DNA of 56,209 nucleotides, taken from the IMG/VR virus record IMGVR_UViG_3300017613_002335; one strand, given 5' to 3'. A program made the position numbers and the translations under genes. How positions within the stretch are numbered: the first letter of the stretch is position 1; each line of letters starts with the position of its first letter. Positions 1 to 56,209 of the stretch are shown piece by piece. The notes under the pieces are model-generated. The model was given only the letters and a program-made list of their open reading frames with translations. It ran no database searches and was not told the origin of the DNA. Source of the stretch: a virus.

Positions 1-121
1 AGGAACCTTTGAAAATAAAGATTTGTTAAAAGGGGTTGGTGCAAGGTGGAAACAAAAACAATGGAGGTTTGATCATGACCCAACAAAAAATATCGCCAAG
101 GCACTCAGAGATAAACATGGA
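1..121. repeat. Terminal overlap copy 1 (identical to 56089-56209)
   Basis: Base-for-base identity over 121 nt. It lies inside an open reading frame. Confidence 0.97.
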
Positions 122-3100
122 ATATTACAACCAGATAGTGAAAAAACACCCGGAGATCGAGGAACAAGTGATGAAAATCTGGATGGACGATCACCCGGGG
201 TGGCCGGATCTGTTAGAAAAAAGGGAACCCACAAAATGGGAACTCTTGATGATCCTGAAAGGTATGTCCAAACAGACACAATAGCTGCGATCAACAAAGG
301 GAAAGAATTCGGAATTCCCCAAAAAGTTTTAAACGAACAAGTCGATGATATTGCAAGGATAGTAAAAGCGCATAATGAAAAGACCGGCATTTTTCTCCTT
401 GCGAATGAGGCTGGTACAGGAAAGTCATTTGTACTTGGTGGTGCTATGCAGGAATTGCAGCGCAATGGTGCAAAAAAGATACTCTATGTGACGATGAATA
501 ATGGATTGGTCAACCAACTCAAGAAAGATCTTTCCGCATTTGATATAAAAAATGTTGAATTCATCACATACGCGAAACTACGCAAAACGACTCCAGCATC
601 GTATGACGCATTGATTTTTGATGAGAGTCAAAATATTAAAAATGTGAAATCCGCTGTCGGGAAAAGAGCAAACCTTTTCATTGAACAGTCAAAATTTTCA
701 ATATTTGCTTCAGCCACACCATTTGAAAACCCAGTTGAGGCCGCATACCTTGAACCGACAAATATTTTTTTTAGTGGTCATTGGGACTGGGCAATTGACC
801 ATGGTGCATACACCAGCCAGTTCAGAAACAACAAGTTTTTGGTTTGGCCTGGTCAGGGTTCTGAACAAAACGCTATTGATGCAAGGAACTGGCTTATAGA
901 TAAAGGTGTGATGACTCAGCGAGACATGCAACTTGATCCTAAAACATCAGAAGTCAAAGTAAGTAAAGTCTCGGTTGATGCTGATTATGTGAGTATGTAT
1001 ACCAGCATAACAAATGCTTTTGATTATGCGATGGATAATCTCCCTGGTAAACAAAAGGGGCAATTGGCAGCTTATGGTGTGAACCTTAGAAAACGGATAC
1101 TTGAGGCAAGTAAACTTGACCAGGCTATCGCCGCTGCTAAATCTGCAATAAAGGAAGGCCGAAACCCAATTATTTTTGTTGAAACTAAAGCTGAACGGCG
1201 GATTGATACGGACAGTATTATTACAGCATATGATATGTGGGAACAAACACCACGGGATTTGCGAGATAAAAAACCTCCATATAGCAAAGTAACATATAAC
1301 GCAGCGAAGGCAATCCAAGATGCAGGGTTTGATGTCCTTACCTTAGAACCAACACAATCAAAAATTGTTGAAGCATTCGGTGAAGAAAATGTAGCTATAT
1401 ACACTGGCGCGGTTAGTGATATCAAGGCTCATAAGAACTTATCACAATGGCGTAAGGGGAACAAAAAGGTTTTGGTTGCAACTATGGCAAAAGGCGGCAC
1501 TGGGCTCAGTCTTCATGACACAGTCGGTGATCATCCTACAACCCAAATAAATTTAAATCTCCCATGGAAAGCAAGCGGTGTTGCCCAGGTTTCCGGTAGA
1601 TCAGCCCGATATGGGGTTGTTGGGAAACCCAAAACCGTTTGGATTTATGCCAAGAATATAGAGTTTGACAACGATTTGGCATCGCGTGTAACCCAACGCA
1701 TGAAAGACATGGGCGCGACGGTTAAGGGAGATATACCAGGGTTAGCGAAGGAGTTTGAGGATGCGTCTGGGGATGGTCGGGGTGAGAAGACAACAATCCG
1801 GGAAGCAATAGGGAAGACAAATACCAAGGTAACATCAGAAGACGGTAGGGCATATATTCTTGAAGATCTTGTTACAGGTATTTACAAAGCAGGGATGTCC
1901 CTTAAAGATTTTTCAGGAAAAGTTGCTGGTAAACTTGGTAGCGCATACAAAAAGGTAAAAGATGCTGTTGTCAAGATGTATCACGCGATCAACGCCCATC
2001 TTGATACATTTACATCTGGTTCTTCTGTTGGGGCTTTGACTTTATATCGAAAAGATGGGACAAGACCTCAATACCAAACCTTGAACCAATCCCCTGAAAA
2101 CCATTCCCCGTGGTATTCCAAAATGCGGGAAACCCTTAGTAAAAAACTCAATAATGCCCCTGCAAAAATGATGAAATCTCAAGTTAATTCATGGGCTAAA
2201 AAGGGCATGTTCAAGAAAGAAGAACTTGAATGGTCTGGATTGAATGAATGGCTTGATTCTAAAAAAGGTAAGGTCACAAAACAAGAAGCTCTTGATTATC
2301 TTGATCAGAATCAGGTTCAGGTTGAGGAAGTTGTTAAGGGTGAAAATTTGAGTGAAAGATCTTTAGCACATGAAGAAATATCACTATACGTTAACGATGA
2401 ACTTGGAGACGGTCTTTATTTTGATGATAGAGGGCCAGAAGGGTATAGTTACATAATTGAAGAAGATAAAGATGGTAACCTTGGAGAAGTAGTCCATGAA
2501 GGTTATGCAGACGAAATTGCCGAAAGCTTAAATTTAGAAATAAGAACCCCGGAAGAACAAACAAAATTCTCAGACTACCAACTCCCCGGAGGCAAAAAAT
2601 ACAAAGAGATTTTACTGACGTTGCCATCTAAATCCGGATTAAAAAAACTCACAGGCTTTAATAGCATATCAGAAGCAAGTAAAAGAGCAGAAAAATTAAA
2701 ACAAGATTACAAATCCCCCCATTGGGACGAACCAAATGTATTAGCCCATGTCCGAATGTCAGAGCGTGAGATTGATGGTAAAAAAGTCCTGCATGTTGAG
2801 GAAATCCAAAGTGACTGGCACCAAAGAGGTAGGGAGAAAGGGTATGCGTCAGGACCATTAGCTGAACTACCAAAAGATACCCGTGTCTATTCAAAAAATA
2901 TGGCGATTAATGCCAAGACAATCCGTAATAACTTCAAAAAACACTATGACACTGTAATTGATGGGTTGAGTAAAGTGTATGACGGATTGTCAGAATCCGA
3001 GCAAAAAAAGATAGAAAAACTTGATGATGCTGTTCAAGATTATTTTGATAAAGATCCAAATACTGAAAATGTAGGGGACCCAATACTATTTGTTGAATGG

Positions 3101-6100
3101 GCAAACAAAGTCAAACCAGGGACATTCTCAGACGAGTTTATAAATCCAGTTAGAAAGACTAAAAAATGGTTTGTTAAAGGCCCAGGCAAATATTCACGGG
3201 GTAGTAGAAGTTTGATAGATTCTGCCGGTGATGTCATTATAGGTAGGGGTAGGAGTGAGAATGAAGCAGTAAAAGATGCTCTTAAAAATGTAAATGACTA
3301 TAACATTTCACAATCTACACCCAACGCCCCATTCAAAAAAACATGGCCCATGCTCGCTTTTAAACGGATGGTCAGATACGCAGCGGAGAACGGGTTTGAT
3401 ACTATTGCTTGGACTCAAGGTACAGAACAGGCTGATCGGTATGATTTGAGTAAGCACATAGAGGAAATTTTATATTTCACCCCGGGACCCGGTAAAGTTA
3501 GAATGGATATTCAAACTATTGACGGGGAACGCATAAACTCTTTCGATGAACTAATGACTTTTGAAGAAGCTGAAGATGTTGTTGGTAAAGAAATTGTTCA
3601 AAAAATGCAGAATAGTGAAGGTGACAAAAAACGCCATGGGGAGAGATCTTTGTCAGGTATCGATCTCAAAGTAGGCGGCGAAGGAATGCTTGCCTTCTAT
3701 GACAAGATCCTACCCGCCGAAGTAAATAAATTCTTCAATAAAAAAGCATGGGGTAAGTCTCGGGTCGGGGAGATTGATGTTTTTACAAATGAGGCATATG
3801 AAGACTCAGATTATGCAGAATTAGATGATTTGACAAGGAAAATTGCTAAAGAAAAAGGGGAGCTTGAAACTCTACATGCTTTAGAAATAACCAAAGAAAT
3901 GAAATCCAAATCCCTGAAAGAAGGCATGCCCTTATTCCAAGGCAAGTCAATTGACAAAACTGGGGAAAATGCTAAACTATCAGGCAAAGAAAAACTAAAA
4001 GCCCTATTTCAATCAAAGAAGGATAAGAAAGATGCCCTGCGTAAAAGTAAACGGGATAAGGTATTATCTAAAACCGGAAGCATTACAAGACAAAGACTTT
4101 ATGCAGCGATTGAAAACATCGGGGATGCCTCAAAAGCAAAAATCACAATCCCTGCCAACCGAAAACAAAAAACCCTTAACAAACTTGGAAAAGCACTCGG
4201 ATTAAAAACAGTATTCTTTAAAACCTCTGATCCAGATACCAATATAACAGGATTTACCTACCCCGGCACAGATCAATTATTTATCAATCTTTCATCCGGT
4301 GTTCCAGAAATTGGTATACTCGGTCATGAAGTAACCCACCAGATAAAGAACAATCACCCTGACCTTTACGATTATCTTGTTAGCGAATTTGAAAATAATA
4401 AAAAAGATTATTTCCTTTACGCTGCTACAGAACAAACCAATCGTGAACTTGCGAACCTGCCCAAATTATCAGAAGCGGATTTGCTTGAGGAATTTATAGG
4501 CGATTTTGCAGGGGATAGCTTTCAACGTCCTGAATTCTGGTCAAAGTTAAATCAAAAATCTCCTTCAATGTCTCAGAAGTTATTCAGCGCAATTAAAAAA
4601 GTTGTGGCTAAAATCAAATCATTTATAACCAGAGCGGAACAGTATGTGGTTGATATTGATAAGGCTCAAGGTGCTATTGCTCATGCTATGAGTGAGGCTA
4701 TTAATCGTGGAAATGGCTTGAAAACTAAGCCGAATAGTGGTAGCAAGTTTTCAGTGACAGATAAAAAGGGGAAGGGCAACATATCCACTGAATCAAACCC
4801 CGTTACGCCCGCTGGTGGAGTGAAATTCAAGAAAATAAAAGACATCCCTATAGAGGACGGCCAAATTCACATTCGTTTTTCAGATAGGATAAGCGATGAT
4901 TTAGAAAGGGGTTGGTCTGGATTTATGGGGGAGAGAGCAGACAATTCCCCTGAGGGTGCAGTTCAACAAGATTTCGGGCAAAGTTTAAAATTTGAAGAAA
5001 TTCACGAAGATTTATATCATTTTTTTGGGGAAGGTGGTGAAAAGCTAGGAGAAGTCAGAAAAGACCCACATACCAAAGAATGGGTTCACGTTGACCATGA
5101 CGGTGTTGCAGGTTTTGATCTAGATGCTGGAAAATATGGTTCAACATTAAGCGATATTATAACTAATTTAGAAAAAGATTCATATGCTTCTTGGTCTTTT
5201 GGTTCATCAAGCGACAGTGGAAAAATATGGAAAGAAGATAACCCAATAACGCTTTATTCTGGTAGTATTGGCGACAATAAAGATATAAACATCATCCTCA
5301 CTGGTGCATCTAAAAAAACAAGAGATAAATTTCTATCCCCTAAACCATCCAGCACACCGGGCGCAGGTGTGCAAAGTAGTACCTCCTCCTTCCAAACAGT
5401 CAAGAACACAGCAACCAAGGCATTTAAAAAATGGAGTAAAGGGCTTAAAGATAATGGCAAATATAAAACAGGAGAACCGGTTTTATTAAAAGCATCTCAT
5501 GGAAGTTTTTCAGCAGGTGGTTTAAACAAGTTTAGTGCAGAAATGACCGGAAGTGGGATATACGGGAGTGCTGAAAATAATAGAATCGGGCATTATTTCA
5601 CAACAGATCGGTATATTGCATCTGAATATGCGACAGGTTACGATGTAGAAAATCTGAATCAAGAAGATGAATATGACGAATTTCTTCATGATAGTATTTT
5701 AGATGGAGAGATTGTTGAAGGTGCTGGGATTATAGATGCGCACATCAGGCTCGACAACCCTTATGTTATTTCTGGTAAAAAGTTTTCTAAATTTGTTGAG
5801 GGAAAAACAAAAGATGTAGATAGCCTTATCTCTGTATTGGATAATGGTGGTCATGATGGTGTCATAGTGGTCTGGTCTGACAAGTCTCCATCAGCTAAGA
5901 TATTATACAAAGAAGCTTACGATAAAAATATAAAAGTGATGCAAAAGGCGTATGAAAAAGCATCTATTAAGCAACAGAAACATTTAGAAATGGTAGATCA
6001 TATTTTCCATCAATGGATGGAAAAAGAAAGAGCAGATGAACTCCCAGATGTCGTGAGGGAAAATTTTAAGATAATAAATAAAAATGACATCTTCAAAGGG

Positions 6101-9100
6101 TTAAGTGTAGACGAGTCTGCTAAAGAATATTTATCAGGAGAAGACAAATGGATAATTGTACGTCCAGATGCAGCGAATAACGCCCAAATAAAATCCATCC
6201 ACAACAAAGGCACATGGGATAAAAACAACCCTGATATCAGGTATCAAACCTCCGAAGATCTTGGACACGATGGTTTTTCAATAGAGGACAATTCAAGCTT
6301 TGTTGAAGATTTCAAGCATAATATTGTTGATGAGCTTAGTCCGGTATCAAAGCTTTACAAAGCAATTAAAAAGGATATCCCAGAAGCCGCAGACTTTAGA
6401 TTAAAGGAACAATTAAGAGTCAGTAAAGCCAAGGGTGATATCGATAAAGCAGAAGAAAAATATTTCAAGCCAATCAAGCAACTTATTGGCCTTGGGAAAC
6501 TAACCGTGGAGTTGGTTGACGAGTTCCTTTATGCCCGTCATGCACCAGAGGCCAATGCCAGGTTAAGGTTGACCAATGCGCGGCATTACCTGAGAAAGCT
6601 GGCAGATGCACAAAGAGGGGACAGCCTCAAAAATAAGATTGCAGAAATGGACGCTGATTTTGAGTTGATGCAATTCCCAACCAATGAGATTCAGGAGAGT
6701 TATTTAGACCTCCTAGAATCTGAATTGGGTACAATTGAAGAAACCTTTGCAGCTGCCAACCAAAAATTAATGAGGGCTGAATCAAAGCTTGATTCTCCAC
6801 TATCTGAAAGCCAGATTGAAAAAGCTGAAAAATCGATAGCATATCATAAAAAGATAGTTGATAAGATCGATAGAGAATTCGATGTCAGAGACAAATGGGA
6901 AACTTTTAGCGCGAAACCTTCAGGCATGACTGACGGCCACATTGACCCAAGAGACAATGAAGCCAAAGAGATTTCTGACAAGTGGAAAGACAACAAAACC
7001 ATGGCTAAAATTGCAAAGCTGTACGACGCAATGAACGCTGAAGGTCTTGAAATATCCCATGATGCAGGCCGACTGTCAGATGAAGAATATAATGCTATCA
7101 AGGGTACTTTCGATTATTATGCTCCACTGTTCAGGGAAGGGTATGAAAAGAAACGCGCTTTTAAAGGTATCGGGGGTGGTGTCACAAATTTAGGTTCTGA
7201 TGTAAATCCCAGGGGCGGGTCCACAAAAAGAGCGGTCCATCTTCTGGCGAATGGTTTTGTGAATCATGAGAAAAAAATCATAAATGCCAAAAAAGCAGAG
7301 GTCGCATCGGCTTTTATCAAGTTCATAAAAATGAACCCGAACAAAGACTTCCTGAGTTTTGAAGAACCCAAAACAGTCGCTACATATGACGGGTCAGGTA
7401 ATATCGAAAGAAGGCCAGCGTTTTTTATTGGTAAGGACGAACCAAAGATAAAAGTTAAAACTGATGGTAAGGTTTATATAGTCTCAGCCAGTCCAAACAA
7501 TATACATGCCATGCGGATACTTGATATTATCCAGGGGAATGATCACAATTCAGGTCCGATTGTAAATGCTTTGGGTAAATTAAACCGAAGACTTGCCGCA
7601 GTAAACACCACATGGAACCCTGAATTTATTTTCTCTAACCTTGCGCGTGACCTTCAAACCGCTGCTTTTAATTTGACCGATACAGAAGTATCGAACATGA
7701 GGAAAACGATATTTAAGAATGTCCCAAAAGCTATGAAGGGTCTTTACAGTTCCATGCAGGGTGACGGCTCCCATGAGTGGGTGAGTATAGTCAAGCGATA
7801 CGAATCATCCGGGGCAAAGATAGGCTGGATCGATTACGGTAAGGATATTGAAACAAAGGCCGCGAAACTTGAAAGCCAGATAGATTTATTCCGGGAAGGA
7901 CATAAGACCAAAAAAGCGGCCGCTAAATTGGTTGAGCTTGTCGAGGACTATAACTCGATTGTTGAAAATGCGGTCAGGCTGTCCACATTTAAGGCCGGTA
8001 TTGATTCTGGTATGTCAGAGGCAAAGGCCGCAATCATGGCAAAGGGTTTGACTGTAAACTTTAACCAGAAAGGTGCTTACGGCCCTGTCATAAATAGTCT
8101 TTACCTTTTTGCAAATGCAGGCATCCAGGGATCAACCCGGATTTTTAAAACGATTAAAAATAACCCTAAGAAAATGGCTAAAATTTTGGGTGGCACCATG
8201 GGGCTGGCAACCATATTGGCCATTGCGAATAGGTCACTGGGCGGCGATGATGAAGACGATATACCATACTATGATCAGGTTGACGATTACCTGAAAGCAA
8301 GAAACATGATCTTTATGATACCCGGGACTAAGGGTAAGTATGCTAAAATACCATTGCCCTGGGGATATAATGTATTCTGGGCGTTAGGTACTGAGATTGG
8401 TGATCTTGCGATAAAAGATGATTATAGCCCACTGGATGGTGCAAGCCGAATGTTAGCAACTGCCCTGGATGCATTTAACCCGTTGCAATCTGCTACTGTC
8501 CTGCAAACTTTATCGCCAACCGTCGGAGATCCGTTTGTCCAGGTTGGTGAAAACAAAACATTTTTTGGTTCTCCATTAATGCCAGAGGGCAACCCGTTTT
8601 CACGAACACCAGAACCAGACTCTGAAAAATACTGGGGATCTGTCAGACCAACATCTAAGATGCTGGCCAAAGCTGCGAATACAATCAGCGGTGGAAATAA
8701 AGTAAAACCCGGCATGGTTGATGTGTCTCCCGAAACGCTTGATTTAGTCTGGGACACTTTTACAGGCGGGGCCGGACGATTCCTATCGGATACAGTTTCC
8801 CTGCCAATCAGGGCGTTGTCCGGGGATCTAAAGACTTCAAAAATACCTGGGCTTAGAAGAGTTTTGGGCTCTCAATCAGAATATAAAGTCACAACTGATT
8901 ATAGATCTAACATAACCTATATATATAGATTGCATGAACAGGCAAAAGAGTATCCGGCAAAGAAAAAGAAATTACGCAAGAATAAAGTGTACACGCTTTA
9001 TACATCTGCGAAAAAATATGAATCGAGAATAAAAAAACTGAACACCCTTTTAAAACGGGCAAAAACCGAAAAAGGAAAAGAGAAAATTAAAAAACGGATA

Positions 9101-9154
9101 GAAAAGTTAAAACGGGCATTCAATAAAAAGGTTATCTTACGGAGGGCTTCTTGA
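1..9154 (+). CDS. Giant virion polyvalent protein, C-terminal part (continuation of 52601..56209 across the circular junction)
   Basis: Same frame as 52601 and open from base 2. ORF-track entry 23..9154 is only the portion after an internal TTG. Motifs: NEAGTGKS (404-427), FDESQNIKN (617-643), ATMAKGGTGLSLHD (1478-1519), EEIQSDWHQRGREKGY (2798-2845), HEVTH (4325-4339), H..Y..E-like block (5470-5890), hydrophobic helices (8090-8420), Lys/Arg-rich tail (8940-9151). Confidence 0.85.
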   Translation, partial: GTFENKDLLKGVGARWKQKQWRFDHDPTKNIAKALRDKHGILQPDSEKTPGDRGTSDENLDGRSPGVAGSVRKKGTHKMGTLDDPERYVQTDTIAAINKGKEFGIPQKVLNEQVDDIARIVKAHNEKTGIFLLANEAGTGKSFVLGGAMQELQRNGAKKILYVTMNNGLVNQLKKDLSAFDIKNVEFITYAKLRKTTPASYDALIFDESQNIKNVKSAVGKRANLFIEQSKFSIFASATPFENPVEAAYLEPTNIFFSGHWDWAIDHGAYTSQFRNNKFLVWPGQGSEQNAIDARNWLIDKGVMTQRDMQLDPKTSEVKVSKVSVDADYVSMYTSITNAFDYAMDNLPGKQKGQLAAYGVNLRKRILEASKLDQAIAAAKSAIKEGRNPIIFVETKAERRIDTDSIITAYDMWEQTPRDLRDKKPPYSKVTYNAAKAIQDAGFDVLTLEPTQSKIVEAFGEENVAIYTGAVSDIKAHKNLSQWRKGNKKVLVATMAKGGTGLSLHDTVGDHPTTQINLNLPWKASGVAQVSGRSARYGVVGKPKTVWIYAKNIEFDNDLASRVTQRMKDMGATVKGDIPGLAKEFEDASGDGRGEKTTIREAIGKTNTKVTSEDGRAYILEDLVTGIYKAGMSLKDFSGKVAGKLGSAYKKVKDAVVKMYHAINAHLDTFTSGSSVGALTLYRKDGTRPQYQTLNQSPENHSPWYSKMRETLSKKLNNAPAKMMKSQVNSWAKKGMFKKEELEWSGLNEWLDSKKGKVTKQEALDYLDQNQVQVEEVVKGENLSERSLAHEEISLYVNDELGDGLYFDDRGPEGYSYIIEEDKDGNLGEVVHEGYADEIAESLNLEIRTPEEQTKFSDYQLPGGKKYKEILLTLPSKSGLKKLTGFNSISEASKRAEKLKQDYKSPHWDEPNVLAHVRMSEREIDGKKVLHVEEIQSDWHQRGREKGYASGPLAELPKDTRVYSKNMAINAKTIRNNFKKHYDTVIDGLSKVYDGLSESEQKKIEKLDDAVQDYFDKDPNTENVGDPILFVEWANKVKPGTFSDEFINPVRKTKKWFVKGPGKYSRGSRSLIDSAGDVIIGRGRSENEAVKDALKNVNDYNISQSTPNAPFKKTWPMLAFKRMVRYAAENGFDTIAWTQGTEQADRYDLSKHIEEILYFTPGPGKVRMDIQTIDGERINSFDELMTFEEAEDVVGKEIVQKMQNSEGDKKRHGERSLSGIDLKVGGEGMLAFYDKILPAEVNKFFNKKAWGKSRVGEIDVFTNEAYEDSDYAELDDLTRKIAKEKGELETLHALEITKEMKSKSLKEGMPLFQGKSIDKTGENAKLSGKEKLKALFQSKKDKKDALRKSKRDKVLSKTGSITRQRLYAAIENIGDASKAKITIPANRKQKTLNKLGKALGLKTVFFKTSDPDTNITGFTYPGTDQLFINLSSGVPEIGILGHEVTHQIKNNHPDLYDYLVSEFENNKKDYFLYAATEQTNRELANLPKLSEADLLEEFIGDFAGDSFQRPEFWSKLNQKSPSMSQKLFSAIKKVVAKIKSFITRAEQYVVDIDKAQGAIAHAMSEAINRGNGLKTKPNSGSKFSVTDKKGKGNISTESNPVTPAGGVKFKKIKDIPIEDGQIHIRFSDRISDDLERGWSGFMGERADNSPEGAVQQDFGQSLKFEEIHEDLYHFFGEGGEKLGEVRKDPHTKEWVHVDHDGVAGFDLDAGKYGSTLSDIITNLEKDSYASWSFGSSSDSGKIWKEDNPITLYSGSIGDNKDINIILTGASKKTRDKFLSPKPSSTPGAGVQSSTSSFQTVKNTATKAFKKWSKGLKDNGKYKTGEPVLLKASHGSFSAGGLNKFSAEMTGSGIYGSAENNRIGHYFTTDRYIASEYATGYDVENLNQEDEYDEFLHDSILDGEIVEGAGIIDAHIRLDNPYVISGKKFSKFVEGKTKDVDSLISVLDNGGHDGVIVVWSDKSPSAKILYKEAYDKNIKVMQKAYEKASIKQQKHLEMVDHIFHQWMEKERADELPDVVRENFKIINKNDIFKGLSVDESAKEYLSGEDKWIIVRPDAANNAQIKSIHNKGTWDKNNPDIRYQTSEDLGHDGFSIEDNSSFVEDFKHNIVDELSPVSKLYKAIKKDIPEAADFRLKEQLRVSKAKGDIDKAEEKYFKPIKQLIGLGKLTVELVDEFLYARHAPEANARLRLTNARHYLRKLADAQRGDSLKNKIAEMDADFELMQFPTNEIQESYLDLLESELGTIEETFAAANQKLMRAESKLDSPLSESQIEKAEKSIAYHKKIVDKIDREFDVRDKWETFSAKPSGMTDGHIDPRDNEAKEISDKWKDNKTMAKIAKLYDAMNAEGLEISHDAGRLSDEEYNAIKGTFDYYAPLFREGYEKKRAFKGIGGGVTNLGSDVNPRGGSTKRAVHLLANGFVNHEKKIINAKKAEVASAFIKFIKMNPNKDFLSFEEPKTVATYDGSGNIERRPAFFIGKDEPKIKVKTDGKVYIVSASPNNIHAMRILDIIQGNDHNSGPIVNALGKLNRRLAAVNTTWNPEFIFSNLARDLQTAAFNLTDTEVSNMRKTIFKNVPKAMKGLYSSMQGDGSHEWVSIVKRYESSGAKIGWIDYGKDIETKAAKLESQIDLFREGHKTKKAAAKLVELVEDYNSIVENAVRLSTFKAGIDSGMSEAKAAIMAKGLTVNFNQKGAYGPVINSLYLFANAGIQGSTRIFKTIKNNPKKMAKILGGTMGLATILAIANRSLGGDDEDDIPYYDQVDDYLKARNMIFMIPGTKGKYAKIPLPWGYNVFWALGTEIGDLAIKDDYSPLDGASRMLATALDAFNPLQSATVLQTLSPTVGDPFVQVGENKTFFGSPLMPEGNPFSRTPEPDSEKYWGSVRPTSKMLAKAANTISGGNKVKPGMVDVSPETLDLVWDTFTGGAGRFLSDTVSLPIRALSGDLKTSKIPGLRRVLGSQSEYKVTTDYRSNITYIYRLHEQAKEYPAKKKKLRKNKVYTLYTSAKKYESRIKKLNTLLKRAKTEKGKEKIKKRIEKLKRAFNKKVILRRAS

Positions 9155-14720: not shown

Positions 14721-14732
14721 CTTTTTGGCGGC
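14713..14732. repeat. 20-bp direct repeat TGGTAGCACTTTTTGGCGGC, copy 1
   Basis: Identical to 14923-14942. It sits exactly at the truncation point of the integrase remnant. Confidence 0.9.
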
Positions 14733-43367: not shown

Positions 43368-44033
43368 ATGACTTTTCTTGAAATTTGCAAACGGCTCAGA
43401 AGCGAGGCAGGGTTGAGTGGGACTGGACCTGCTTCTGTCATCAGTCAGACGGGTGAATCGAAAAAGATTGTCGAATGGGTCCAGGCGGCTGATGAAGATA
43501 TCCAGAATATGTATCCGGACTGGGAATTTTTGCGGGATGATTTCAGTTTTTCGACTATCGCCGCGCAACAGTCATATACGCCAACACAGGCGGGAGAATC
43601 AACCCTTGCAAATTGGAAAGTCAATGAGCGTGGGGATGTAAGGATTTATTCTTCTGTCTTAGATGAATCATATTTGGTTTATATGCCGTGGCAGGAATTT
43701 AAAAGCACATATCTGTTTGGATCATCCAGAAGTCAAACGGGCAGGCCCACAGTGTTCAGTATTAAGCCGAACAACTCAATCATTTTTCATCCGATACCGA
43801 ACGCTGTCTTTAATTGCAATGGAGAGTTCTATGGCAAAGCCGTGACAATGGCAACCAATACGGCAGACCCACAATTTCCAAGTCAATTCCACATGATTTT
43901 GGTTTGGAGAGCGTTGACACTTTACGGGGCATACGATGCAGCGGACGAGCGATACACCCATGGCCAAAATGAATACTTGCGTATTTTGACCGCTTTGAAG
44001 CGTGACCAGATGCCGCAGATAACTTGGGGATAG
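43368..44033 (+). CDS. Tail/neck structural protein (hypothetical)
   Basis: 221-aa ORF immediately preceding a 677-aa structural gene. This short-then-long pairing resembles tail tubular A/B arrangements of podoviruses. Confidence 0.45.
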   Translation: MTFLEICKRLRSEAGLSGTGPASVISQTGESKKIVEWVQAADEDIQNMYPDWEFLRDDFSFSTIAAQQSYTPTQAGESTLANWKVNERGDVRIYSSVLDESYLVYMPWQEFKSTYLFGSSRSQTGRPTVFSIKPNNSIIFHPIPNAVFNCNGEFYGKAVTMATNTADPQFPSQFHMILVWRALTLYGAYDAADERYTHGQNEYLRILTALKRDQMPQITWG

Positions 44034-48348: not shown

Positions 48349-49587
48349 ATGCAATTCAATGAAGATGTATATTACAAAAATCAGGTCGCGCGACTCAATG
48401 CAGGGACGGAAGCCCACCACGGAGTCAAGGCAAAGCAATGGACTGTTGATAATCTTAAAAGGGTATTTGGTGAGGTAGGTCATACCGCACAATCACATTA
48501 TCAACAGCACGGTATGAAAGAAGGCGTTGCCCCTTATGCGGATTGGAATAAAAATGTTTATGATGCAAATAAGGTTGTCCAGGCCAATGATACTGGTGTT
48601 GTAAATACAAACCTTGGCGTTACAAAAGGGGGCTGGAATACAACTAATCTGAACGAGGCCATGAAGTCTGGTGGAATGAATTCATTACAACATTATGAAA
48701 AGTTTGGCCGGGCTGAGGGCGTTTCTCCCTATGCAAAAACCGGCACGACTCCGATTGTTCAATCGATGTTTTCAGCAAATAGTGGGAACGGCACCCCGAC
48801 CTTGAAAAATGTGACCCCGTACGTACCGCCAGAAAAAGACTTGGTGCAAGGTCGGCTAAATGGACTACTTGCCAAGGGAGGCACTTATATGACCAGTGCC
48901 AGGAAAGCTGGCGAAAGGGTCGCTCATTCAAGGGGGCTGTTGAACTCCAGTCTTGCGGGTCAGCATTCCGAGGAAGCAGCAATAAAAGCCGCTCTTCCTA
49001 TTGCACAGCAGGATTCAAAATCGTTGATCGATGCAGGAACGGCACATCAAAAATATCAAACGGATGTAGGTATCATTTCTGCCCAGGAAACAGCGAGTTC
49101 AAGATTGTCAGCACAATCATATATCCAAGACAGGGGATTGGCTGAATTAAAGGGCTTGATAGAATCTGGGCTATCTTCACAGGATGCCGCGCAAAAACTT
49201 GGGTTATCGGCAGCCGACGCCGCTCAAAAGCTTAAATACCTGGAATTGGATGCTTCTTACAAACGATGGCTGTCTTCCCAGGACGCCACACAGAAACTTG
49301 CACTTGATAAACAGCAGCAGGAGCATGCAGATATCAGAGCGAAAGCCGAAAGGGATTTAAAAACTACTCTTTTAAATGCAGAACTTTCAACATCTGAAAA
49401 CAACACCAGGGCGGCTCAAGTGACAAGTCTTGGCAATAATTATCAGGCTAAATACTTAGAAATCCAAATGAGTACCACAACAAAGTCTGAAGACAAACCC
49501 GATCTAATTAAAAGTCTAAAAGAAAAATATCAGGCGAGTATGCAAGGTGTAGCCGGTATTTATGGGGTGACGCTCACATGGACATAA
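48349..49587 (+). CDS. Tail-module protein: two HY..G..EG repeats plus a Gln/Ala/Ser-rich coiled-coil C-terminal half
   Basis: Repeats at 48484-48537 and 48679-48732. 412 aa. Confidence 0.55.
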   Translation: MQFNEDVYYKNQVARLNAGTEAHHGVKAKQWTVDNLKRVFGEVGHTAQSHYQQHGMKEGVAPYADWNKNVYDANKVVQANDTGVVNTNLGVTKGGWNTTNLNEAMKSGGMNSLQHYEKFGRAEGVSPYAKTGTTPIVQSMFSANSGNGTPTLKNVTPYVPPEKDLVQGRLNGLLAKGGTYMTSARKAGERVAHSRGLLNSSLAGQHSEEAAIKAALPIAQQDSKSLIDAGTAHQKYQTDVGIISAQETASSRLSAQSYIQDRGLAELKGLIESGLSSQDAAQKLGLSAADAAQKLKYLELDASYKRWLSSQDATQKLALDKQQQEHADIRAKAERDLKTTLLNAELSTSENNTRAAQVTSLGNNYQAKYLEIQMSTTTKSEDKPDLIKSLKEKYQASMQGVAGIYGVTLTWT

Positions 49588-50030
49588 AGCGATGCTACGA
49601 CGCACATATTATAGATGGGATTTTAACCCATCCAGAGGTCCGGGACTGGTTGACGGATGATAATTCCCCTCAAGATTATCAAACCGTGATTCATCCTCAG
49701 ATAGTTTATTTAATAGATGAGGATCACACGGGCGTAATACGGCTTGACCCAATGAATAGTGTTACCTGTTCGGTCCATATTGCCACCAGGCCTGAAATGT
49801 GGGGAAGAGGTCATCAATTTGCAAAAGATGTCATGAAGTGGGGGTTTAAAAATACTCTCTACCAAAAGGTAGTGGGAATTATCCCGGGATATAATGACCG
49901 GGTAATAAAATTAGTAAAAGACTTGGGGTTTAAGCAAGAAGGGATGATCACAAAATCATTCCTGAAACGCTGGAAACTCCATGACCAACTTATATTTTGT
50001 TTAAATAAAGGAGATGTGCCATGCCAATGA
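49578..50030 (+). CDS. GNAT-like acetyltransferase-fold protein (tentative)
   Basis: WGRGHQFAKDVMKWGF and DLGFKQEG resemble the acetyl-CoA-binding (R/Q)xxGxG/A and C-terminal LGF blocks. 150 aa. Confidence 0.4.
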   Translation: MDIKRCYDAHIIDGILTHPEVRDWLTDDNSPQDYQTVIHPQIVYLIDEDHTGVIRLDPMNSVTCSVHIATRPEMWGRGHQFAKDVMKWGFKNTLYQKVVGIIPGYNDRVIKLVKDLGFKQEGMITKSFLKRWKLHDQLIFCLNKGDVPCQ

Positions 50031-50782
50031 TAGTAGCTCCTATCGCAAGTTTTGTGACAGGTATAGTCGGCACAGGTGTAATCGGTGCTGTTGTAACTAA
50101 GGCCGTTGTCGGGGCGGTGTATGGTGCCTTAATCGGTGCCGCTACATCTGCCATTACAGGCGGTGATATTCTACAGGGGGCGCTGAAAGGGGCGCTTTTT
50201 GGTGGGCTTGCCGGGGGGGTGATGAGTGGCTTGCAAATAGCCACAGGAATGAGCAGCGCGTCGGCACAATTGGCCGATATGGGTGTGGGGTTGGGCGCAC
50301 CAACGAGCGGACCGCCATTTGTTGAGACTGTTCAAGGTCCGTTAAATGCAGGAGCTACAGCCCCAATTGAGGCAGCAACACCAATAATACCCGCAACCGG
50401 TGGCGGTGGGGGCGGTGGGGGCGGCGGTGGCGGTGGTGGATCAACTCCAATTCCAGCGGAAGCACCACCTGTTAAAAAACCGGGTGTCTTCAGCTCAGTA
50501 TTTGGTGAAGGCGGTATGAGCGATGGAACATCCAGAATACTTGCCGGTGGTGTGACAGGCGCTGCAGGGGCGTTGCTGGAAAAAGAACCTGAAACCAACT
50601 CAGAGTATGCAAAAAAATTACAAGAACTTAACAGAACCGCTCCGTATGTCGAGGAAGGTATACCAACATATTCACAGGCAACGTCAAACATCAAAATACC
50701 TGATTTCTGGGAAAACTCATATAAATTGGTTAGCCCCAAAGCATCAAATCCCGGACTATTAGCAGCAGGAGGGACCGCATAA
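50021..50782 (+). CDS. Glycine-zipper membrane protein with a poly-Gly tract (internal virion / ejection protein by position)
   Basis: The N-terminal 75 aa are GxxxG/A-rich hydrophobic sequence. 14 consecutive Gly codons at 50399-50440. Confidence 0.6.
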   Translation: MPMIVAPIASFVTGIVGTGVIGAVVTKAVVGAVYGALIGAATSAITGGDILQGALKGALFGGLAGGVMSGLQIATGMSSASAQLADMGVGLGAPTSGPPFVETVQGPLNAGATAPIEAATPIIPATGGGGGGGGGGGGGGSTPIPAEAPPVKKPGVFSSVFGEGGMSDGTSRILAGGVTGAAGALLEKEPETNSEYAKKLQELNRTAPYVEEGIPTYSQATSNIKIPDFWENSYKLVSPKASNPGLLAAGGTA

Positions 50783-51378
50783 TGAACCCGAATCAGCAAG
50801 CCCCGCCAATGGAGCAGATGCCAATGGATCAGCCAGGGCAAGAGACTCAAGTCCCGCCTGAAATGCAGGAACAGTTTGATTTATTTGTAATCAATGCGAT
50901 CAATGTTGTTCATGATAAAACTGTATCAGAGGGGATTTTGACAAGGATACTTCACAATGAGAATCGCCTTGAAGCAATTGCAGAGGCAACCGTTGATATC
51001 ACGATGCGCCTTGCAGACTCAGCAGAGGGTGAAGGCCTCCAAATATCAAATGAAGTCCTTGTCCATGGTGGGAATGCTGTTCTGGGTGAGATAATTACCA
51101 TGGCAGAAGCAGCCGGGATGCAGAAGCTAACTGATGAACAGAAGAATGAAGCTTTTCAGAGAGCAACAGCAATATTTATAAATTCATCTGTTGAATCTGG
51201 GAATATGTCAAAAGATCAACTGGTCCAGATGTCTGAACAGGCCCAACAAACCCCAGAGGGTCAGCAGATTGTCCAGACTATGCAGGAACAGGGTGGACAG
51301 GGCCCAGCACCTTCACCGGAACAGCCGATCCCGCCTGAACAACCAGGGGGAATACTTGCTCAAGGGGGTGCCGCATGA
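50782..51378 (+). CDS. Acidic Gln/Pro-rich internal virion protein (hypothetical)
   Basis: Coupled 198-aa ORF. Confidence 0.55.
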   Translation: MNPNQQAPPMEQMPMDQPGQETQVPPEMQEQFDLFVINAINVVHDKTVSEGILTRILHNENRLEAIAEATVDITMRLADSAEGEGLQISNEVLVHGGNAVLGEIITMAEAAGMQKLTDEQKNEAFQRATAIFINSSVESGNMSKDQLVQMSEQAQQTPEGQQIVQTMQEQGGQGPAPSPEQPIPPEQPGGILAQGGAA

Positions 51379-52601
51379 GTTTAGGCAAAGCGCTTTTAGG
51401 TTTTGTTAAGGGGGCCGGTCAAGGCTGGCAAGCCAATATCGAGGACCGTATTACAGACAAGCGGGATAAACAAAAAGCTGATGCCCTGGAAAAAAGGCAG
51501 ATCCGGCTTGAGGAATTGCGTCATACGAATAATATGGCATTGCAAGATGACAGCCAAAAATTTAAAAAATCTGAAAATGATCGTCTCGAAAAAGTAGAAA
51601 CTGATAAATACAACCGTAGAAAAAAGGTGGCTGATGAAGAAAAAGCCGCCGATATCGTCAAGGAAGAAAAAACTTATCAGCGCAGGAAGGGTGAGGATGA
51701 AATCACTTATCAACGTAGGATAGCAGAAGAATACAAAAATGATGAGATTACATATAAACGTCGAATAGGTGAGGATGAGATTACTTATCAACGTAGGATA
51801 GCCGCCGCCAAAAAAGAAAAGGCCGCAGAAATAGACAGGGAAGAAAAACTCTACCAGCGCAGAAAGGGTGACGAACAAACCACTCATGATCGTCGGGTGG
51901 CAAAAGAAGAAAAAACTTATCAGCGAAGAAAGGGTGAGAATAGTGTTGATACCCGGACAAAAGAATGGACTATTATTTCTCGTAAAGCATTATATATTCT
52001 GTCTAATTATGAAGGGTACACAGACAAGGAAACGGGTGAACTTATCCCCGCAATGATTGCGTTAAAACAACAAGCCGATGCTGGTAACAAAGACGCCATA
52101 TCAGATCTTGCGGCAATTAATGACTTTAATATAGAGGCAAGAAAATATTCACCTAAAGGGTTGGTAGCACCACCACCTAAAGGGGGAGATAAGAGTGGTC
52201 TTGAAGATTATTTCAAGGATACGAGCAAAATCAAAGAACCAATATTAAATCCAAAAAATAAGAAAGTTAAAGTAGAAGAACCCAAAAAAGATGAATTGTA
52301 CTTTCTGCCCAAAGCAGTCAGGGAAAAGTTAGATAAAGTTGAATATGGTTCTAAATATTCTAACAAGGATAAGGCACCGAGTCTGTTATCTACCATCAAG
52401 TCCAATGTTCAAGAAAAACTTTATAGTTCACAACCAGACGGAATGGTTAAAACAGGTGAAGACAAAATCACGGCTGTATTACGTCAAATGGGGTCATCCC
52501 TTGAGTTGAGAAAACGTAAAAACATAGCGGAAATTCTGCGTAAAGAATACTCGGAGATGACTGATGCTGAGATTATTAACATGCTTGAGAGAAGAAAATA
52601 A
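51375..52601 (+). CDS. Lys/Glu-rich protein with tandem (E)xTYQRR(K/I)(G/A)E repeats (internal virion protein by position)
   Basis: About 7 copies of TYQRR-type units at about 51655-51950. Coupled on both sides. Confidence 0.6.
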   Translation: MSLGKALLGFVKGAGQGWQANIEDRITDKRDKQKADALEKRQIRLEELRHTNNMALQDDSQKFKKSENDRLEKVETDKYNRRKKVADEEKAADIVKEEKTYQRRKGEDEITYQRRIAEEYKNDEITYKRRIGEDEITYQRRIAAAKKEKAAEIDREEKLYQRRKGDEQTTHDRRVAKEEKTYQRRKGENSVDTRTKEWTIISRKALYILSNYEGYTDKETGELIPAMIALKQQADAGNKDAISDLAAINDFNIEARKYSPKGLVAPPPKGGDKSGLEDYFKDTSKIKEPILNPKNKKVKVEEPKKDELYFLPKAVREKLDKVEYGSKYSNKDKAPSLLSTIKSNVQEKLYSSQPDGMVKTGEDKITAVLRQMGSSLELRKRKNIAEILRKEYSEMTDAEIINMLERRK

Positions 52602-55600
52602 TGTTTGAATTTGATTACTTAGGTGCCTTGGAAGTCGGGAGTCAGGACGAGATTGCAAGGTTCTTGTCTGGCAAGCTTGGTTTTGATTATGATACGGCCA
52701 CAGCCGATGGTGCTACATCAGCCGAAATCATTGACTATTTCTTTGATTCAAGGCGGGTCAAGATGCCTGATCGGGGGCCAGGTCCGGAACCAGAGAAAAA
52801 ATACAATTTCTTGGGTGGTGTTAAGGATGTCGGCAAGCTCTTGTATGATGTCCCTATTAATACAAAGGCGTCAATCGCTGCATTATTAGAAGATAAAAAC
52901 CCGGAACAGGAATACGACTGGAAAGATAAGGCCATTGAAGCCCAGGAAGAAAGGAATCTTGAGCGGTCTTCTGAGCCCGGTGGTGATGAGTATGTTGTTC
53001 CAGGCATAAAACGTCAGGCAATCAGGGATGCCGGGGCAAGTACCGGGTTTTCTCTTACTGCTATGGGAGCAGGACTCCCTGGTATCTTAGCTAGTTCCTA
53101 TGCGACTCCGATTGCCGGTGTACCACTTGCCTTGGCAGGATCGGGTAAAGCCGCATACAATATGGACAGGACCATGTTTACACGGCAACTGATAGGGGCC
53201 TATCGGCAGAATGTAAACCCTGATGCAACACCCGAAGAAATTGATGCCTTTGTTGAACAATCTCAACCATTAATTAACAAACATGGTTTGTGGGAAGCCA
53301 TACCGGAATCAATCGGTAATGTTGCACAAATGACCGGGATCGGGGCCATCTTCAAGGCCGCACTGGGGAAAACCATTGGTACAAAGATTTTTGGTGCAAT
53401 AGCGGGAATGTACGGTACAGAGCTTGGAACCGAAACCATAACCCAGACCGGGCAGCACAATACTGAAATTGAAGCCGGGTTGTCAGATGGTGATAAGCGG
53501 TCCTTTACTTCTCCGGGTGATATGCTTGAATCTTTTAAAGAGGTTGCACCCCAAACTGTTGTCTTAACTTCCTTGGGTGCTGGCGGTGGTGCTGTCGCCG
53601 GTACTGCAACCGGGATTTTAAAAGCCAAGACCGCGGATGATGCCATAGACGAGGCCAACAAGCAAATAGATGGCATCCTGGGCAAGGTATCCACTCCAGG
53701 CTACACGATGCCAGGGGAATTACCATTAGATCTTGATGTGGGTGATACTCCATCTGATCCATTCCAGAATGCTGCAGAGTTGACCGAAGATTTACCGCCA
53801 ATGACAGAATCTGAATACGTTGGTGGCTTAATATCTGATATGAAAAAAGAACAGGGGATTTTAGGACCACCTATTGAAGTGCCTGAAACAACCACAACAG
53901 AAGATGAATGGAATGCACATTATGGCCAGCCGACAAAAATTGAACTAATAGATAAGTGGCAAGCCCGTAAAGTTGATGTGCCTGAAACAAATCAAGATGA
54001 GTATAAGAAACAGCAGCAAAAAATAGACCAGGAGTCAGCTCTTTTTTCACAAAAATTAGATACCATGCAAAACGAAGTAAATACCACTGAAACTAAAGGT
54101 GTTACTCAAGAACATGGTGAACAGTATGAAACAATTCCGTATGGTGCGAATTCACCAAAATGGATGCAGGATCTGCCTACTTATTTAGATAAAAACGGTA
54201 AAAAAAGAGTCTATTCAAGAGTACAACTAAATGCTGTATTTAATAACATTAAAAGCGGGAAAAAATTAAATCCTAACCAGGAAGACTTATACAGGCATAT
54301 CGAAAAAGCAGCGAATGAAAATGCAGGCGAAACAGGAGAATTTGTAGCGCAAGAAGAAGCTGACGACCTTGAGAAAAAAGGATTTGATTTATTAGGATCA
54401 CAAAAGATCCCAGCCGGCGATCTGGATATAGGCGATAAAATTATTGCTACTGTCGATGGTGTTAAAGACGAATTTACGGTCCAAGAAGCTGATACACCAT
54501 TTGGTGATGTTGTACTAAAAGATGGTGTGACTAAAACTGTTGATGTTTTTGAACAGATTGACGTTGAGGCTATTAAAAAAGGTCCAGAGCCTGGGATTTT
54601 GAGCCAGACCGTTGAAGGGGCAAAACAACCCGATACAGAGACATTACCCGATAGTGCTGTTGATGGTACTCAGGAAAGCTTAAATATTGAAGACAATCCA
54701 ACCCAAGAAGACATAGAAGACATACAAGATGCTCAGAAAGCCCAAGAGGAATTTGAGGCAAGCGGAGAAGAAACAGTTTCCCTTGAAGATGTTAAAGCAG
54801 AACTTGAAGAAATACCTCAAGAGCAAGTGGTGGAGAAGGGTGAGGTAGAGATAGACGGAAAACAATATCGCAGGGTCAGTGGTGAGAATAGTTATAACGG
54901 TGTTAAGGTCGGCAATTGGGAATTCAAGTATAAAGATCAATGGCACCCTGTTAAAAACATCCAGATAAGACAAAACGCTGATAAAGTGTTGTTAGAAAAT
55001 CAAGATTCTGTTATTCCAGAAACAGTGACAGATAAAAAGGGGAAGGGCGACATATCCACTGAACAAACCACCGGTGAACCTAAAATTTACCACGACCCAC
55101 AATCAGGAAAACTTGTCCATGTTCAAAAAGGATGGCAGAAAGACGGTGGATATACCTTCTTTAAGACAGATGACTTAAAGAAACGTGGAAGGAATATCAG
55201 GGGGAAAACAGACCAAAGATATTGGTATGATACCAAAGAAGAGGCGGAAACCGCTCTTGCTGATTATGCTCAAAAGAATGGATTCACAGAAGCTACGGAA
55301 GAACAAAAATCTGAATCCACTCCTAAAAAGGAATACAACTACCCGAACCCAAAAACAAAAATTCCTATCCATCTAAAATGGTTGGCAAAATCAGCATGGG
55401 AGCATGAATCAGCAGAGGGATTTGAAGAAAATTTACTGCGTCTTATGCCAGAAAGCGGTGCTGTGACCGTTGACCAGTCTATAAGGCAAATGGAAGAGGC
55501 TGGGTTTAAATCTCCTTCAGATTTTTGGGAAGAGTCAATATCCCTGAAAGGGAAAATTCAAAAGACTCTTGATAAGCGTGATAGTAAAAAAAGGACAATT

Positions 55601-56209
55601 AAAAAATCCCCAAAGAAAACAGAAAAATTCTCAAGTGATTACGGATCTAACAACAAGGTCTTCACTAAAGAGGCCGCAGATAAAGCCAGGGAAATCCTCA
55701 GACAGAAACTGTCAGGGAATCAGTTAAATTCCGGCCTTGATCCTGAGATTGTCCAGGCTGGCATTCAGATCGCTGGCTATCATATTGAATCAGGTGCCAG
55801 AAGTTTTACTGCATATTCCAAGGCAATGATAAAGGATATCGGTGATGTCGTTAAACCATATCTTAGATCATGGTATGAGGCAGCAAGATATTATCCTGGG
55901 TTTGATGCCTCTGGTATGACAGATGGCAAGGACATTAAAGAGGTTGACACGGCCTCAGACAAAACAGATGATAAGACAGATGATGGCGATGTTAAAATCC
56001 TTTCTGATTTCGGTCTGTTTGTAGAACAGGATGGACTTACATGGGGTGTTTCTCAGAAAAAAAAATGGTACGACAAAGGGTCTGGAAAAGGAACCTTTGA
56101 AAATAAAGATTTGTTAAAAGGGGTTGGTGCAAGGTGGAAACAAAAACAATGGAGGTTTGATCATGACCCAACAAAAAATATCGCCAAGGCACTCAGAGAT
56201 AAACATGGA
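52601..56209 (+). CDS. Giant virion polyvalent protein, N-terminal part (continues at base 1; whole gene 4,213 codons)
   Basis: ATG at 52601 overlaps the upstream stop (TAATG). I read every codon from 52601 to 56209 and found no stop. The ORF track lacks it only because it has no stop inside the window. Gly/Ala-rich hydrophobic segments at about 53000-53640, followed by acidic linkers. Confidence 0.85.
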   Translation, partial: MFEFDYLGALEVGSQDEIARFLSGKLGFDYDTATADGATSAEIIDYFFDSRRVKMPDRGPGPEPEKKYNFLGGVKDVGKLLYDVPINTKASIAALLEDKNPEQEYDWKDKAIEAQEERNLERSSEPGGDEYVVPGIKRQAIRDAGASTGFSLTAMGAGLPGILASSYATPIAGVPLALAGSGKAAYNMDRTMFTRQLIGAYRQNVNPDATPEEIDAFVEQSQPLINKHGLWEAIPESIGNVAQMTGIGAIFKAALGKTIGTKIFGAIAGMYGTELGTETITQTGQHNTEIEAGLSDGDKRSFTSPGDMLESFKEVAPQTVVLTSLGAGGGAVAGTATGILKAKTADDAIDEANKQIDGILGKVSTPGYTMPGELPLDLDVGDTPSDPFQNAAELTEDLPPMTESEYVGGLISDMKKEQGILGPPIEVPETTTTEDEWNAHYGQPTKIELIDKWQARKVDVPETNQDEYKKQQQKIDQESALFSQKLDTMQNEVNTTETKGVTQEHGEQYETIPYGANSPKWMQDLPTYLDKNGKKRVYSRVQLNAVFNNIKSGKKLNPNQEDLYRHIEKAANENAGETGEFVAQEEADDLEKKGFDLLGSQKIPAGDLDIGDKIIATVDGVKDEFTVQEADTPFGDVVLKDGVTKTVDVFEQIDVEAIKKGPEPGILSQTVEGAKQPDTETLPDSAVDGTQESLNIEDNPTQEDIEDIQDAQKAQEEFEASGEETVSLEDVKAELEEIPQEQVVEKGEVEIDGKQYRRVSGENSYNGVKVGNWEFKYKDQWHPVKNIQIRQNADKVLLENQDSVIPETVTDKKGKGDISTEQTTGEPKIYHDPQSGKLVHVQKGWQKDGGYTFFKTDDLKKRGRNIRGKTDQRYWYDTKEEAETALADYAQKNGFTEATEEQKSESTPKKEYNYPNPKTKIPIHLKWLAKSAWEHESAEGFEENLLRLMPESGAVTVDQSIRQMEEAGFKSPSDFWEESISLKGKIQKTLDKRDSKKRTIKKSPKKTEKFSSDYGSNNKVFTKEAADKAREILRQKLSGNQLNSGLDPEIVQAGIQIAGYHIESGARSFTAYSKAMIKDIGDVVKPYLRSWYEAARYYPGFDASGMTDGKDIKEVDTASDKTDDKTDDGDVKILSDFGLFVEQDGLTWGVSQKKKWYDKGSGKGTFENKDLLKGVGARWKQKQWRFDHDPTKNIAKALRDKHG
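56089..56209. repeat. Terminal overlap copy 2 (identical to 1-121)
   Basis: Base-for-base identity over 121 nt. The offset of 56,088 is divisible by 3, so the reading frame is preserved across the junction. Confidence 0.97.

Follow-up and report, generated by a model that had tools for sequence, protein, structure and literature searches.

The window analysed here is a stretch of 56,209 nucleotides of viral DNA (IMG/VR virus record IMGVR_UViG_3300017613_002335), and we found that one of its genes encodes a giant protein of 4,213 amino acids with a helicase-like domain in its interior. As judged from its motifs and its predicted structure, this domain is a complete, two-lobed superfamily 2 (SF2) ATPase of the SWI2/SNF2 clade. 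Its family is best described, by profile scores and domain extent, as a sister family that resembles the strawberry-notch (Sno) helicases, and not as a member of Sno proper. The giant protein that carries the domain is, from its recognisable modules, a mosaic “polyvalent” protein. In the reading that we prefer, to which we give a probability of roughly 55%, the domain is a double-stranded DNA (dsDNA) translocase that would be delivered with the genome as polyvalent-protein cargo and would act on the incoming DNA prior to phage gene expression.

The preliminary description of this DNA, which was made from its letters alone, proposed an SF2 helicase on the basis of four motifs. All four occur where they had been placed and share one frame, which is that of the long open reading frame (ORF): motif I, NEAGTGKS (positions 404-427), motif II, FDESQNIKN (617-643), motif Ia, G.KKILYVT, which sits between these two, and motif V, ATMAKGGTGLSLHD (1478-1519). 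Reading further, we found the other SF2 motifs, namely motif III, SATP (710-721), an “LPW” block (1559-1567) and motif VI, QVSGRSARYG (1586-1615).

The first ATPase lobe, which is RecA-like (320..970, + strand), was delimited using the motifs, an AlphaFold2 model and an alignment of 151 members. It contains an upstream conserved Q that resembles a Q-motif, the Walker A sequence GTGKS (413-427), motif Ia, the Walker B sequence or motif II core DESQ (620-631) and motif III. Two long helices between the lobes (980..1153, + strand; model residues 251-269 and 273-308) form a helical protrusion of the SWI2/SNF2 type. The second lobe (1163..1729, + strand) contains motif V, KGGTGLSLHD (1490-1519), the LPW block, motif VI and a helix that follows this last motif, LASRVTQRMKDMGATVKG (1676-1729). 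This lobe is the portion that matches the Pfam model Helicase_C_4, and it is also what the domain has in common with the C-terminal lobe (C-lobe) of the phage P1 protein DarB.

The AlphaFold2 model, built on ten homologues, consists of two RecA-like lobes parted by the two long helices, with a predicted local distance difference test (pLDDT) score of 86.5 and a predicted template modelling (pTM) score of 0.81. A Foldseek search of the PDB with this model gave 557 matches at E≤1e-3. The top 50 are all SWI2/SNF2 ATPases (E-values from 5e-14 to 7e-11), and the matches include SsoRad54 (5e-14), Mot1, Chd1, ISW1, CSB, the Zorya protein ZorD and RapA. Fold matches among viral predicted structures agree with this picture. 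Searches of the PDB by sequence were less informative: the single sequence found one marginal match, to SsoRad54, and the profile found generic SF2 proteins and no Sno structure. When the helicase segment was scanned alone against Pfam, ResIII scored 28.9 bits (cut-off 22.5) and Helicase_C about 22 bits (cut-off 23.5), while SNF2-rel_dom (PF00176, cut-off 24.9) had no match in the window helicase at E≤0.05-1.

The full motif set, the ResIII score, the confident model and the many fold matches thus bear out the proposal of an SF2 helicase. The preliminary description had added that the domain does not match generic SNF2 proteins. At the level of the fold, this addition has to be withdrawn, because the 50 best fold matches are all SWI2/SNF2 ATPases and because motif II is of the generic SNF2 kind: the DEAQNIKN of SsoRad54 aligns with FDESQNIKN. 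Sno is itself a branch of SWI2/SNF2 (PMC5512222).

The catalytic residues are all present in the window copy, including the Walker A lysine, the Walker B DE, the motif VI arginines and the upstream conserved Q. Among the 151 aligned members, conservation is 100% for GxGK[TS] and for DE, 96-99% for SAT-P, 94-100% for GGTGLSLH and 99% for both LPW and Q..R..R.G. Given that the catalytic positions are nearly invariant, we argue that ATPase activity is under selection, and the SF2 ATPase is probably real and active. The domain could instead be a decayed helicase remnant without catalysis that serves as a structural spacer. Such a remnant would be in keeping with a motif II that reads DESQ where DEAH is commoner, and with the fact that the Sno N-terminal model AAA_34 scores below its Pfam cut-off. 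However, a Q occurs at that position in 10% of family members, SsoRad54 has DEAQ, and not one catalytic residue is missing, so we give this explanation almost no credence.

The relationship to Sno, which the preliminary description took to be a match, held up in part. The best specific Pfam models are both Sno models, but neither match is firm. AAA_34 (PF13872) reaches 22.8-23.8 bits, under its gathering cut-off of 27. The Sno C-terminal model, Helicase_C_4 (PF13871), is borderline, at 30.4, 30.8, 31.5 or 31.7 bits according to how the segment was cut, against a cut-off of 30.5 (E about 2e-7). Because a scan of the whole 3,043-residue fragment missed Helicase_C_4, the cutting of segments matters. 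In the window copy, the match covers only profile positions 54-160 of 271, which correspond to motifs V-VI and the following helix, and the last ~110 positions of the model (160-271) have no match.

Several relatives also match the Sno models. Among the ten aligned homologues, AAA_34 was found in seven (E<1e-3, best 1.2e-10), Helicase_C_4 in four and SNF2-rel_dom in none. Precomputed annotations of the 28 matches from a profile word search list AAA_34 in 17 and Helicase_C_4 in 11. One family member (P0010) reaches 41.2 bits with AAA_34, and a giant of 4,171 amino acids (P0077) has a strong Helicase_C_4 match. Since more distant relatives (P0206-P0210) match both Sno models, the family grades into proteins that both models recognise.

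A C-terminal winged-helix domain is a hallmark of Sno (Iyer et al., PMC5512222). Stand-alone homologues of the window helicase (P0008, P0009 and P0012) stop ~50-65 residues past the helix that follows motif VI, and therefore leave little room for such a domain; family-wide conservation ceases near residue 1790 of the giant protein. It is this limited room, together with scores at or below the cut-offs and the unmatched end of Helicase_C_4, that led us to the label of sister family. A second gene of the phage, at 24299, had been put forward as a true SNF2 gene, and this is indeed the case: it matches SNF2-rel_dom with 76 bits and is canonical. The window helicase and this gene clearly belong to separate subfamilies.

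The size of the giant protein becomes apparent only when the ends of the window are joined. Positions 1-121 are exactly identical to positions 56089-56209, so the assembly is circular and 56,088 bp long. The reading frame continues over the junction and gives a single ORF that runs from 52601 to 56088 and on from 1 to 9154 (12,642 nucleotides). The end overlap and the open frame assign the N-terminal 1,163 codons to 52601..56088 (+ strand); the remainder, residues 1164-4213 and the stop codon, occupies 1..9154 (+ strand), and Pfam recognises only the helicase and the LPD38 domain in it. An ORF start near position 23, as previously assumed, is thus replaced, since the ORF found there is the continuation of the one beginning at 52601. 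The ATG at 52601 overlaps the stop codon of the upstream ORF (TAATG, 52599-52603). Within the giant protein, the helicase region spans about residues 1270-1740 (window ~320-1730). The gene makes up 22% of the phage genome, whose GC content is 41.6%, and it is the largest gene of the phage, which the linearisation point happens to split in two. Taken together, the two parts of the ORF encode a candidate polyvalent, DarB-like virion protein.

The polyvalent assignment follows from what the protein carries and where it is encoded. It is a large, multi-domain polypeptide encoded with late and packaging genes, and its C-terminal module (6269..9154, + strand) contains an LPD38 domain (PF18857; 8270-8827) with a score of 142.5-145.8 bits (cut-off 27). 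According to Iyer et al. (2017, PMC5512222), LPD38 is confined to the polyvalent proteins of phages. Many short-tailed phages have this module in their giant or virion proteins. Its last ~900 residues are matched by PHROG families 14770, 616 and 10691, and its last ~950 residues have tblastn matches in 354 phage records, among them Stx-converting podophages, Vibrio phages and the Ralstonia and Burkholderia giants annotated as “DarB-like antirestriction” proteins. The C-terminus of Bcep22 gp75 is 24% identical to it over 695 residues (E 9e-45). An AlphaFold2 model of 6950-9151, which corresponds to the C-terminal ~730 residues including LPD38, is mostly helical (pLDDT 79); the fold of this widespread phage module appears to be unsolved.

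The giant gene closes the structural module of the phage, in which we located the large terminase (34257-35537), the portal (35550-37841) and an SU10-type adaptor (43368..44033, + strand; PF24175, 41.7 bits) that marks the module. Five ORFs directly upstream of the giant gene (48349..52601, + strand) are candidates for co-ejected or internal proteins, and have no PHROG or Pfam matches. Four of the five lack cysteine (48349-49587, 50021-50782, 50782-51378 and 51375-52601). The giant protein is likewise free of cysteine along all 4,213 residues, where ~47 would be expected from the mean of 1.11% in the 43 other ORFs (P about 3e-21). Among 130 related giants, which are metagenomic, 68 have no cysteine either. 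The absence of cysteine may be an adaptation of proteins that cross the tail and the oxidising periplasm while unfolded. A packaged relative is known: JC1 gp69, which is 79% identical to gp75, was detected by 51 unique peptides in CsCl-purified virions (PMC9144972). The gene context, the C-terminal homology, the JC1 precedent and the lack of cysteine are all consistent with a giant protein that is packaged and ejected, as we infer. Because giant proteins of this kind are known to be packaged in virions and the helicase is embedded in one, the injected counter-defence role that had been suggested for it is a reasonable inference.

These observations also bear on the possibility that the domain is an ordinary intracellular helicase for replication or recombination, fused by chance to a large structural protein and not delivered at all. 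SF2 helicases are common among phage replication genes, and packaging of the giant protein is itself deduced, which gives the idea some footing. However, the replication module already holds a primase-helicase (26180-28567) and the canonical SNF2 gene (24299-25663). The giant gene, by contrast, lies in the late structural module, as do those of the five relatives that we looked up. Moreover, the giant lacks cysteine, and in 130 of the 150 best family matches the domain is internal to a protein of at least 1,500 amino acids. We regard an ordinary intracellular helicase as very improbable.

The family to which the helicase belongs is large. A word-indexed search found only 12 relatives, but an exhaustive profile search retrieved 14,003 representatives at E≤1e-3, 3,965 at E≤1e-10 and 677 at E≤1e-30, where each represents a cluster defined at 50% identity. 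The 130 giants among the best 150 matches range from 1,500 to 7,800 amino acids, with the helicase at a median relative position of 0.36. We checked five giants in their own contigs, and all lie in phage structural modules beside genes for SU10 adaptors, SU10 portals, capsid proteins or tailspikes. Three elements travel together across residues ~1150-1790: a small G(G/A)RW..K.W domain, then the helicase, then a short tail. The remainder is shuffled between giants. The small domain (residues ~1150-1203; 56048..56209, + strand) accompanies the helicase in most relatives: residues 1151-1250 are covered by 90-114 of 159 relatives, with a conserved GGRW..W motif. We considered DUF5710 (PF18974) as its identity, but the copy in one relative (P0013) scored 17.2 bits (E 0.004), below the cut-off, and the window copy has no Pfam match.

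Cultured phages are effectively without this helicase family. A tblastn search of 50,697 GenBank phages, using as queries both the window copy and a more typical member (P0013), gave only remote matches of 21-26% identity. The same type of search in 72,556 plasmids found one stand-alone Thermus homologue, whose context between insertion sequence (IS) elements is uninformative, and none of the plasmid matches is annotated as strawberry notch. Stand-alone cellular homologues, e.g. from Thermus and Verrucomicrobia, are also among the nearest relatives in the word search. The cluster names of ten relatives contain nothing informative.

Two relatives appeared to be instructive and were set aside. 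One (P0135) has the length of Bcep22 gp75, 4,602 amino acids, but its metagenomic contig is unrelated, and the real gp75 has a helicase of another subfamily. The other (P0171) looked like a short orthologue of 1,169 amino acids. It begins at base 1 of its contig and is thus probably a truncated giant, so it is no evidence that the helicase part was added. This LPD38 protein (L009, 1-3510, on a 59.9-kb contig; 53% identical) has an ART-PolyVal domain, and its gene, too, was probably cut where a circular assembly was linearised. Gene callers may systematically under-report such giants.

Some relatives carry a methylase next to the helicase. In 24 of the 130 related giants (18%), an N6_Mtase domain directly follows the helicase, with methylase motifs I and IV (NPPF) beginning 30-70 residues downstream. 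Pfam confirmed N6_Mtase in both segments that were tested (35-38 bits), which are followed by ddrB-ParB or by a weak LPD26 match. The methylase segments span residues 3040-3480 in P0013 and 790-1230 in P0017, where ddrB-ParB is next, and there are 22 others; P0023 and P0045 carry PF02384. This pairing of helicase and methylase in about one-fifth of the related giants points to a DNA-protection job of the kind attributed to DarB. The window copy belongs to the methylase-free majority (106 of 130): no segment of the 4,213 residues has a Pfam methylase match, nor does the protein contain an [NDS]PP[YFWH] motif.

The motor could serve genome entry instead. In this case, a translocase on the ejected giant protein would sit at the cytoplasmic end of the channel and reel in dsDNA, much as transcription by RNA polymerase does in T7. 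Several observations are compatible with this: the domain forms part of a putative ejection protein, at the median relative position given above in its relatives; the ATPase motifs are strictly conserved; and with 106 of 130 relatives lacking a methylase, the motor must be useful on its own. In addition, SWI2/SNF2 proteins are dsDNA translocases that do not unwind their substrate (PMC5512222). On the other hand, the helicase-methylase fusions in 18% of relatives favour modification or protection of DNA over its import, and the stand-alone cellular homologues of Thermus and Verrucomicrobia cannot be import motors. We also know of no precedent for an SNF2-type internalisation motor, and we regard an import function as unlikely.

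According to the reading that we prefer, namely a translocase delivered with the genome, the giant protein would be packaged in the virion by means of its conserved C-terminal LPD38 module and would leave the virion together with the DNA. The ATPase would then load on the entering phage dsDNA and track along it at the cost of ATP, removing or blocking host defence or nucleoid proteins bound to the DNA ahead of phage gene expression. In the methylase-bearing relatives, it could carry the methylase along the DNA. Since this phage lost the methylase partner or never had it, its ATPase would have to work through translocation or remodelling and nothing else.

Good structural matches include RapA and Mot1, which suggest another target. 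An injected ATPase could act on host RNA polymerase or on nucleoid proteins, in the manner of RapA or Mot1, as a factor for early transcription or nucleoid remodelling that helps the incoming genome to be expressed, and not against restriction. Functions in the early life cycle, and not only in anti-defence, have been proposed for polyvalent proteins (PMC5512222). However, the giant protein has none of the RNA polymerase-binding or accessory domains of RapA or Mot1, and the sole conserved neighbour of the helicase is the small DUF5710-like domain. The adenine methylases in relatives also suit DNA protection better. Thus, we consider a remodeller of this type to be quite unlikely.

Several points weigh against delivery as counter-defence cargo. 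The methylase is absent here, so the mechanism of DarB is not simply transferable, and how DarB itself works is, to our knowledge, not yet settled. SWI2/SNF2 ATPases serve a wide range of functions in cells. The evidence that this giant protein is packaged and ejected is indirect, and searching the PDB with the modelled C-terminal LPD38 module gave no significant match, and hence no structural link to solved ejection proteins. Finally, ~3,000 residues of the giant protein have no Pfam match, and annotation of these regions could alter the picture.

A bolder version, which we think has a low probability, is that the domain is the first member described of a widespread class, with 677 clusters or more, of injected, Sno-like motors that work independently of a methylase and either import the genome or clear host defence complexes. 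Possible targets in this version are the translocases of type I and type III restriction-modification systems, SMC-like proteins or nucleoid proteins. If true, it would add a novel way of bringing a genome into the cell or of countering host defence.

We now note other regions of the giant protein. Close relatives of the C-terminal module have an ART-PolyVal domain, which could not be confirmed here. A pattern search found a sole HExxH motif (residues 2605-2609; 4325..4339, + strand), which could be the site of a zincin processing peptidase as in polyvalent proteins, although no part of the giant protein has a Pfam match to a peptidase or to MPTase-PolyVal. Two unannotated modules, at ~2090-2870 (residues ~1860-2120) and ~3230-3980 (residues ~2240-2490), have the motifs “VLHVEEIQSDWHQ” and “WTQGTEQADRY”. 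The modules are found again in 10-16 other giants, where their placement with respect to the helicase varies; they have no Pfam match, and their motifs look nuclease-like by eye. Near the N-terminus, a Gly/Ala-rich, mildly hydrophobic region (~53030-53680; residues ~145-360) is common to the N-terminal regions of four other giants; its similarity to the membrane protein MtrD is weak (16.9 bits, below the cut-off).

The phage itself is uncultivated, is probably short-tailed and is distant from cultured phages: the best match of its portal, with 33.5% identity, is to a freshwater metagenomic phage. For a neighbouring protein of the window, public assemblies contained no exact counterpart. Two adjacent, overlapping ORFs (14263-14952 and 14891-15970, − strand) both match Phage_integrase. 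They could represent a split or frameshifted integrase or else two recombinases, and their presence suggests a temperate lifestyle. A small ORF of 213 amino acids (18093-18734, − strand) has C5-cytosine-methylase motifs (YAGIGG, PPCP and ENV). A Pfam DNA_methylase match (1.3e-8) obtained in a batch of 26 ORFs presumably belongs to this ORF, and is the only methylase candidate among the ORFs scanned. Just upstream of the canonical SNF2 gene lies a gene for a DUF2800/PD-(D/E)XK nuclease (22248-23432; 255 bits). Together with the SNF2 and primase-helicase genes, it forms a replication module that is apart from the helicase assigned to the virion.

That giant proteins transferred together with phage DNA carry SWI2/SNF2-related ATPases as cargo, with Sno-like domains “in a few instances”, has been described since 2017 (PMC5512222). 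What our analysis adds is a Sno-like subfamily distinct from those of DarB and Bcep22 gp75, its large size and its near-exclusive occurrence in giants of uncultivated phages. Further additions are the mostly methylase-free state of these giants, the reversed domain order when a methylase is present, and the avoidance of cysteine in the carriers. Given that “DarB-like” giants occupy about one-fifth of some phage genomes (22% here and 22.1% in JC1) and that the role of their helicase modules is unsettled, these findings provide a testable handle on how an injected SWI2/SNF2 motor acts alone. They also reveal a large, almost wholly metagenomic family that escapes current phage annotation (PHROGs and GenBank phages).

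Compared to canonical SWI2/SNF2 proteins such as SsoRad54, RapA, ZorD and the DISARM protein DrmD, the window helicase has the same fold, the same helical insert between the lobes and the same DExx-x-KN and (S/T)AT-P-x-x-N motifs. The C-lobe of DrmD has a weak NCBIfam similarity to it (32 bits). However, the window helicase lacks the accessory domains of these proteins as well as a Pfam SNF2-rel_dom match, and it has LPW where canonical SNF2 proteins have a “DxxWNP” block.

The “DarB-like” giants of the Lessievirus podoviruses, Bcep22 gp75 and JC1 gp69, resemble the window protein in their overall design. In each case, a giant protein is encoded at the end of the virion module, has a homologous C-terminal module and contains a SWI2/SNF2-related ATPase as internal cargo within a shuffled modular architecture. 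Residues ~1036-1110 of the window protein also resemble residues ~1351-1444 of gp75, as judged by eye and without a scored alignment. By contrast, the gp75 helicase is of another subfamily (the window-family profile aligns to gp75 with a probability of only 50.7%, in the C-lobe alone), and the window protein has no adenine methylase, SLT lysozyme or other cargo that Pfam recognises.

P1, a myovirus, possesses a dedicated pathway for Dar packaging, and its DarB is a capsid-packaged antirestriction protein. DarB and the window protein are both large and both have a SWI2/SNF2-related ATPase; delivery with the DNA would be their common logic. The preliminary description went further and stated that the same type of helicase occurs in DarB, which our comparisons contradict. 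DarB (L001:10469-17236, minus strand) matches the Pfam models N6_Mtase/Eco57I, SNF2-rel_dom and Helicase_C, and its helicase segment, when scanned alone, matches SNF2-rel_dom (45.8 bits) and Helicase_C but neither Sno model. Aligning the family profile to DarB with hhalign joined 89 columns, in the C-lobe only (probability 91.7%), and the BLASTP match (E 1e-5) is likewise over the C-lobe. The two helicases have in common the C-lobe signature KxxxG(I/L)(N/S)LH ... L(T/N)LPW ... Q..GR..R.G. Given this common block and the unaligned remainder, DarB and the window helicase are separate but related branches within a clade, rather than a single type. The analogy also leaves out the methylase-helicase dyad by which DarB is defined (PMC5512222): DarB has an N-terminal N6-adenine methylase (N6_Mtase, Eco57I) ahead of its helicase, whereas the Pfam scans and the motif search found no such partner in the window protein. 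In the relatives that do bear a methylase, the helicase precedes it, opposite to the arrangement in DarB.

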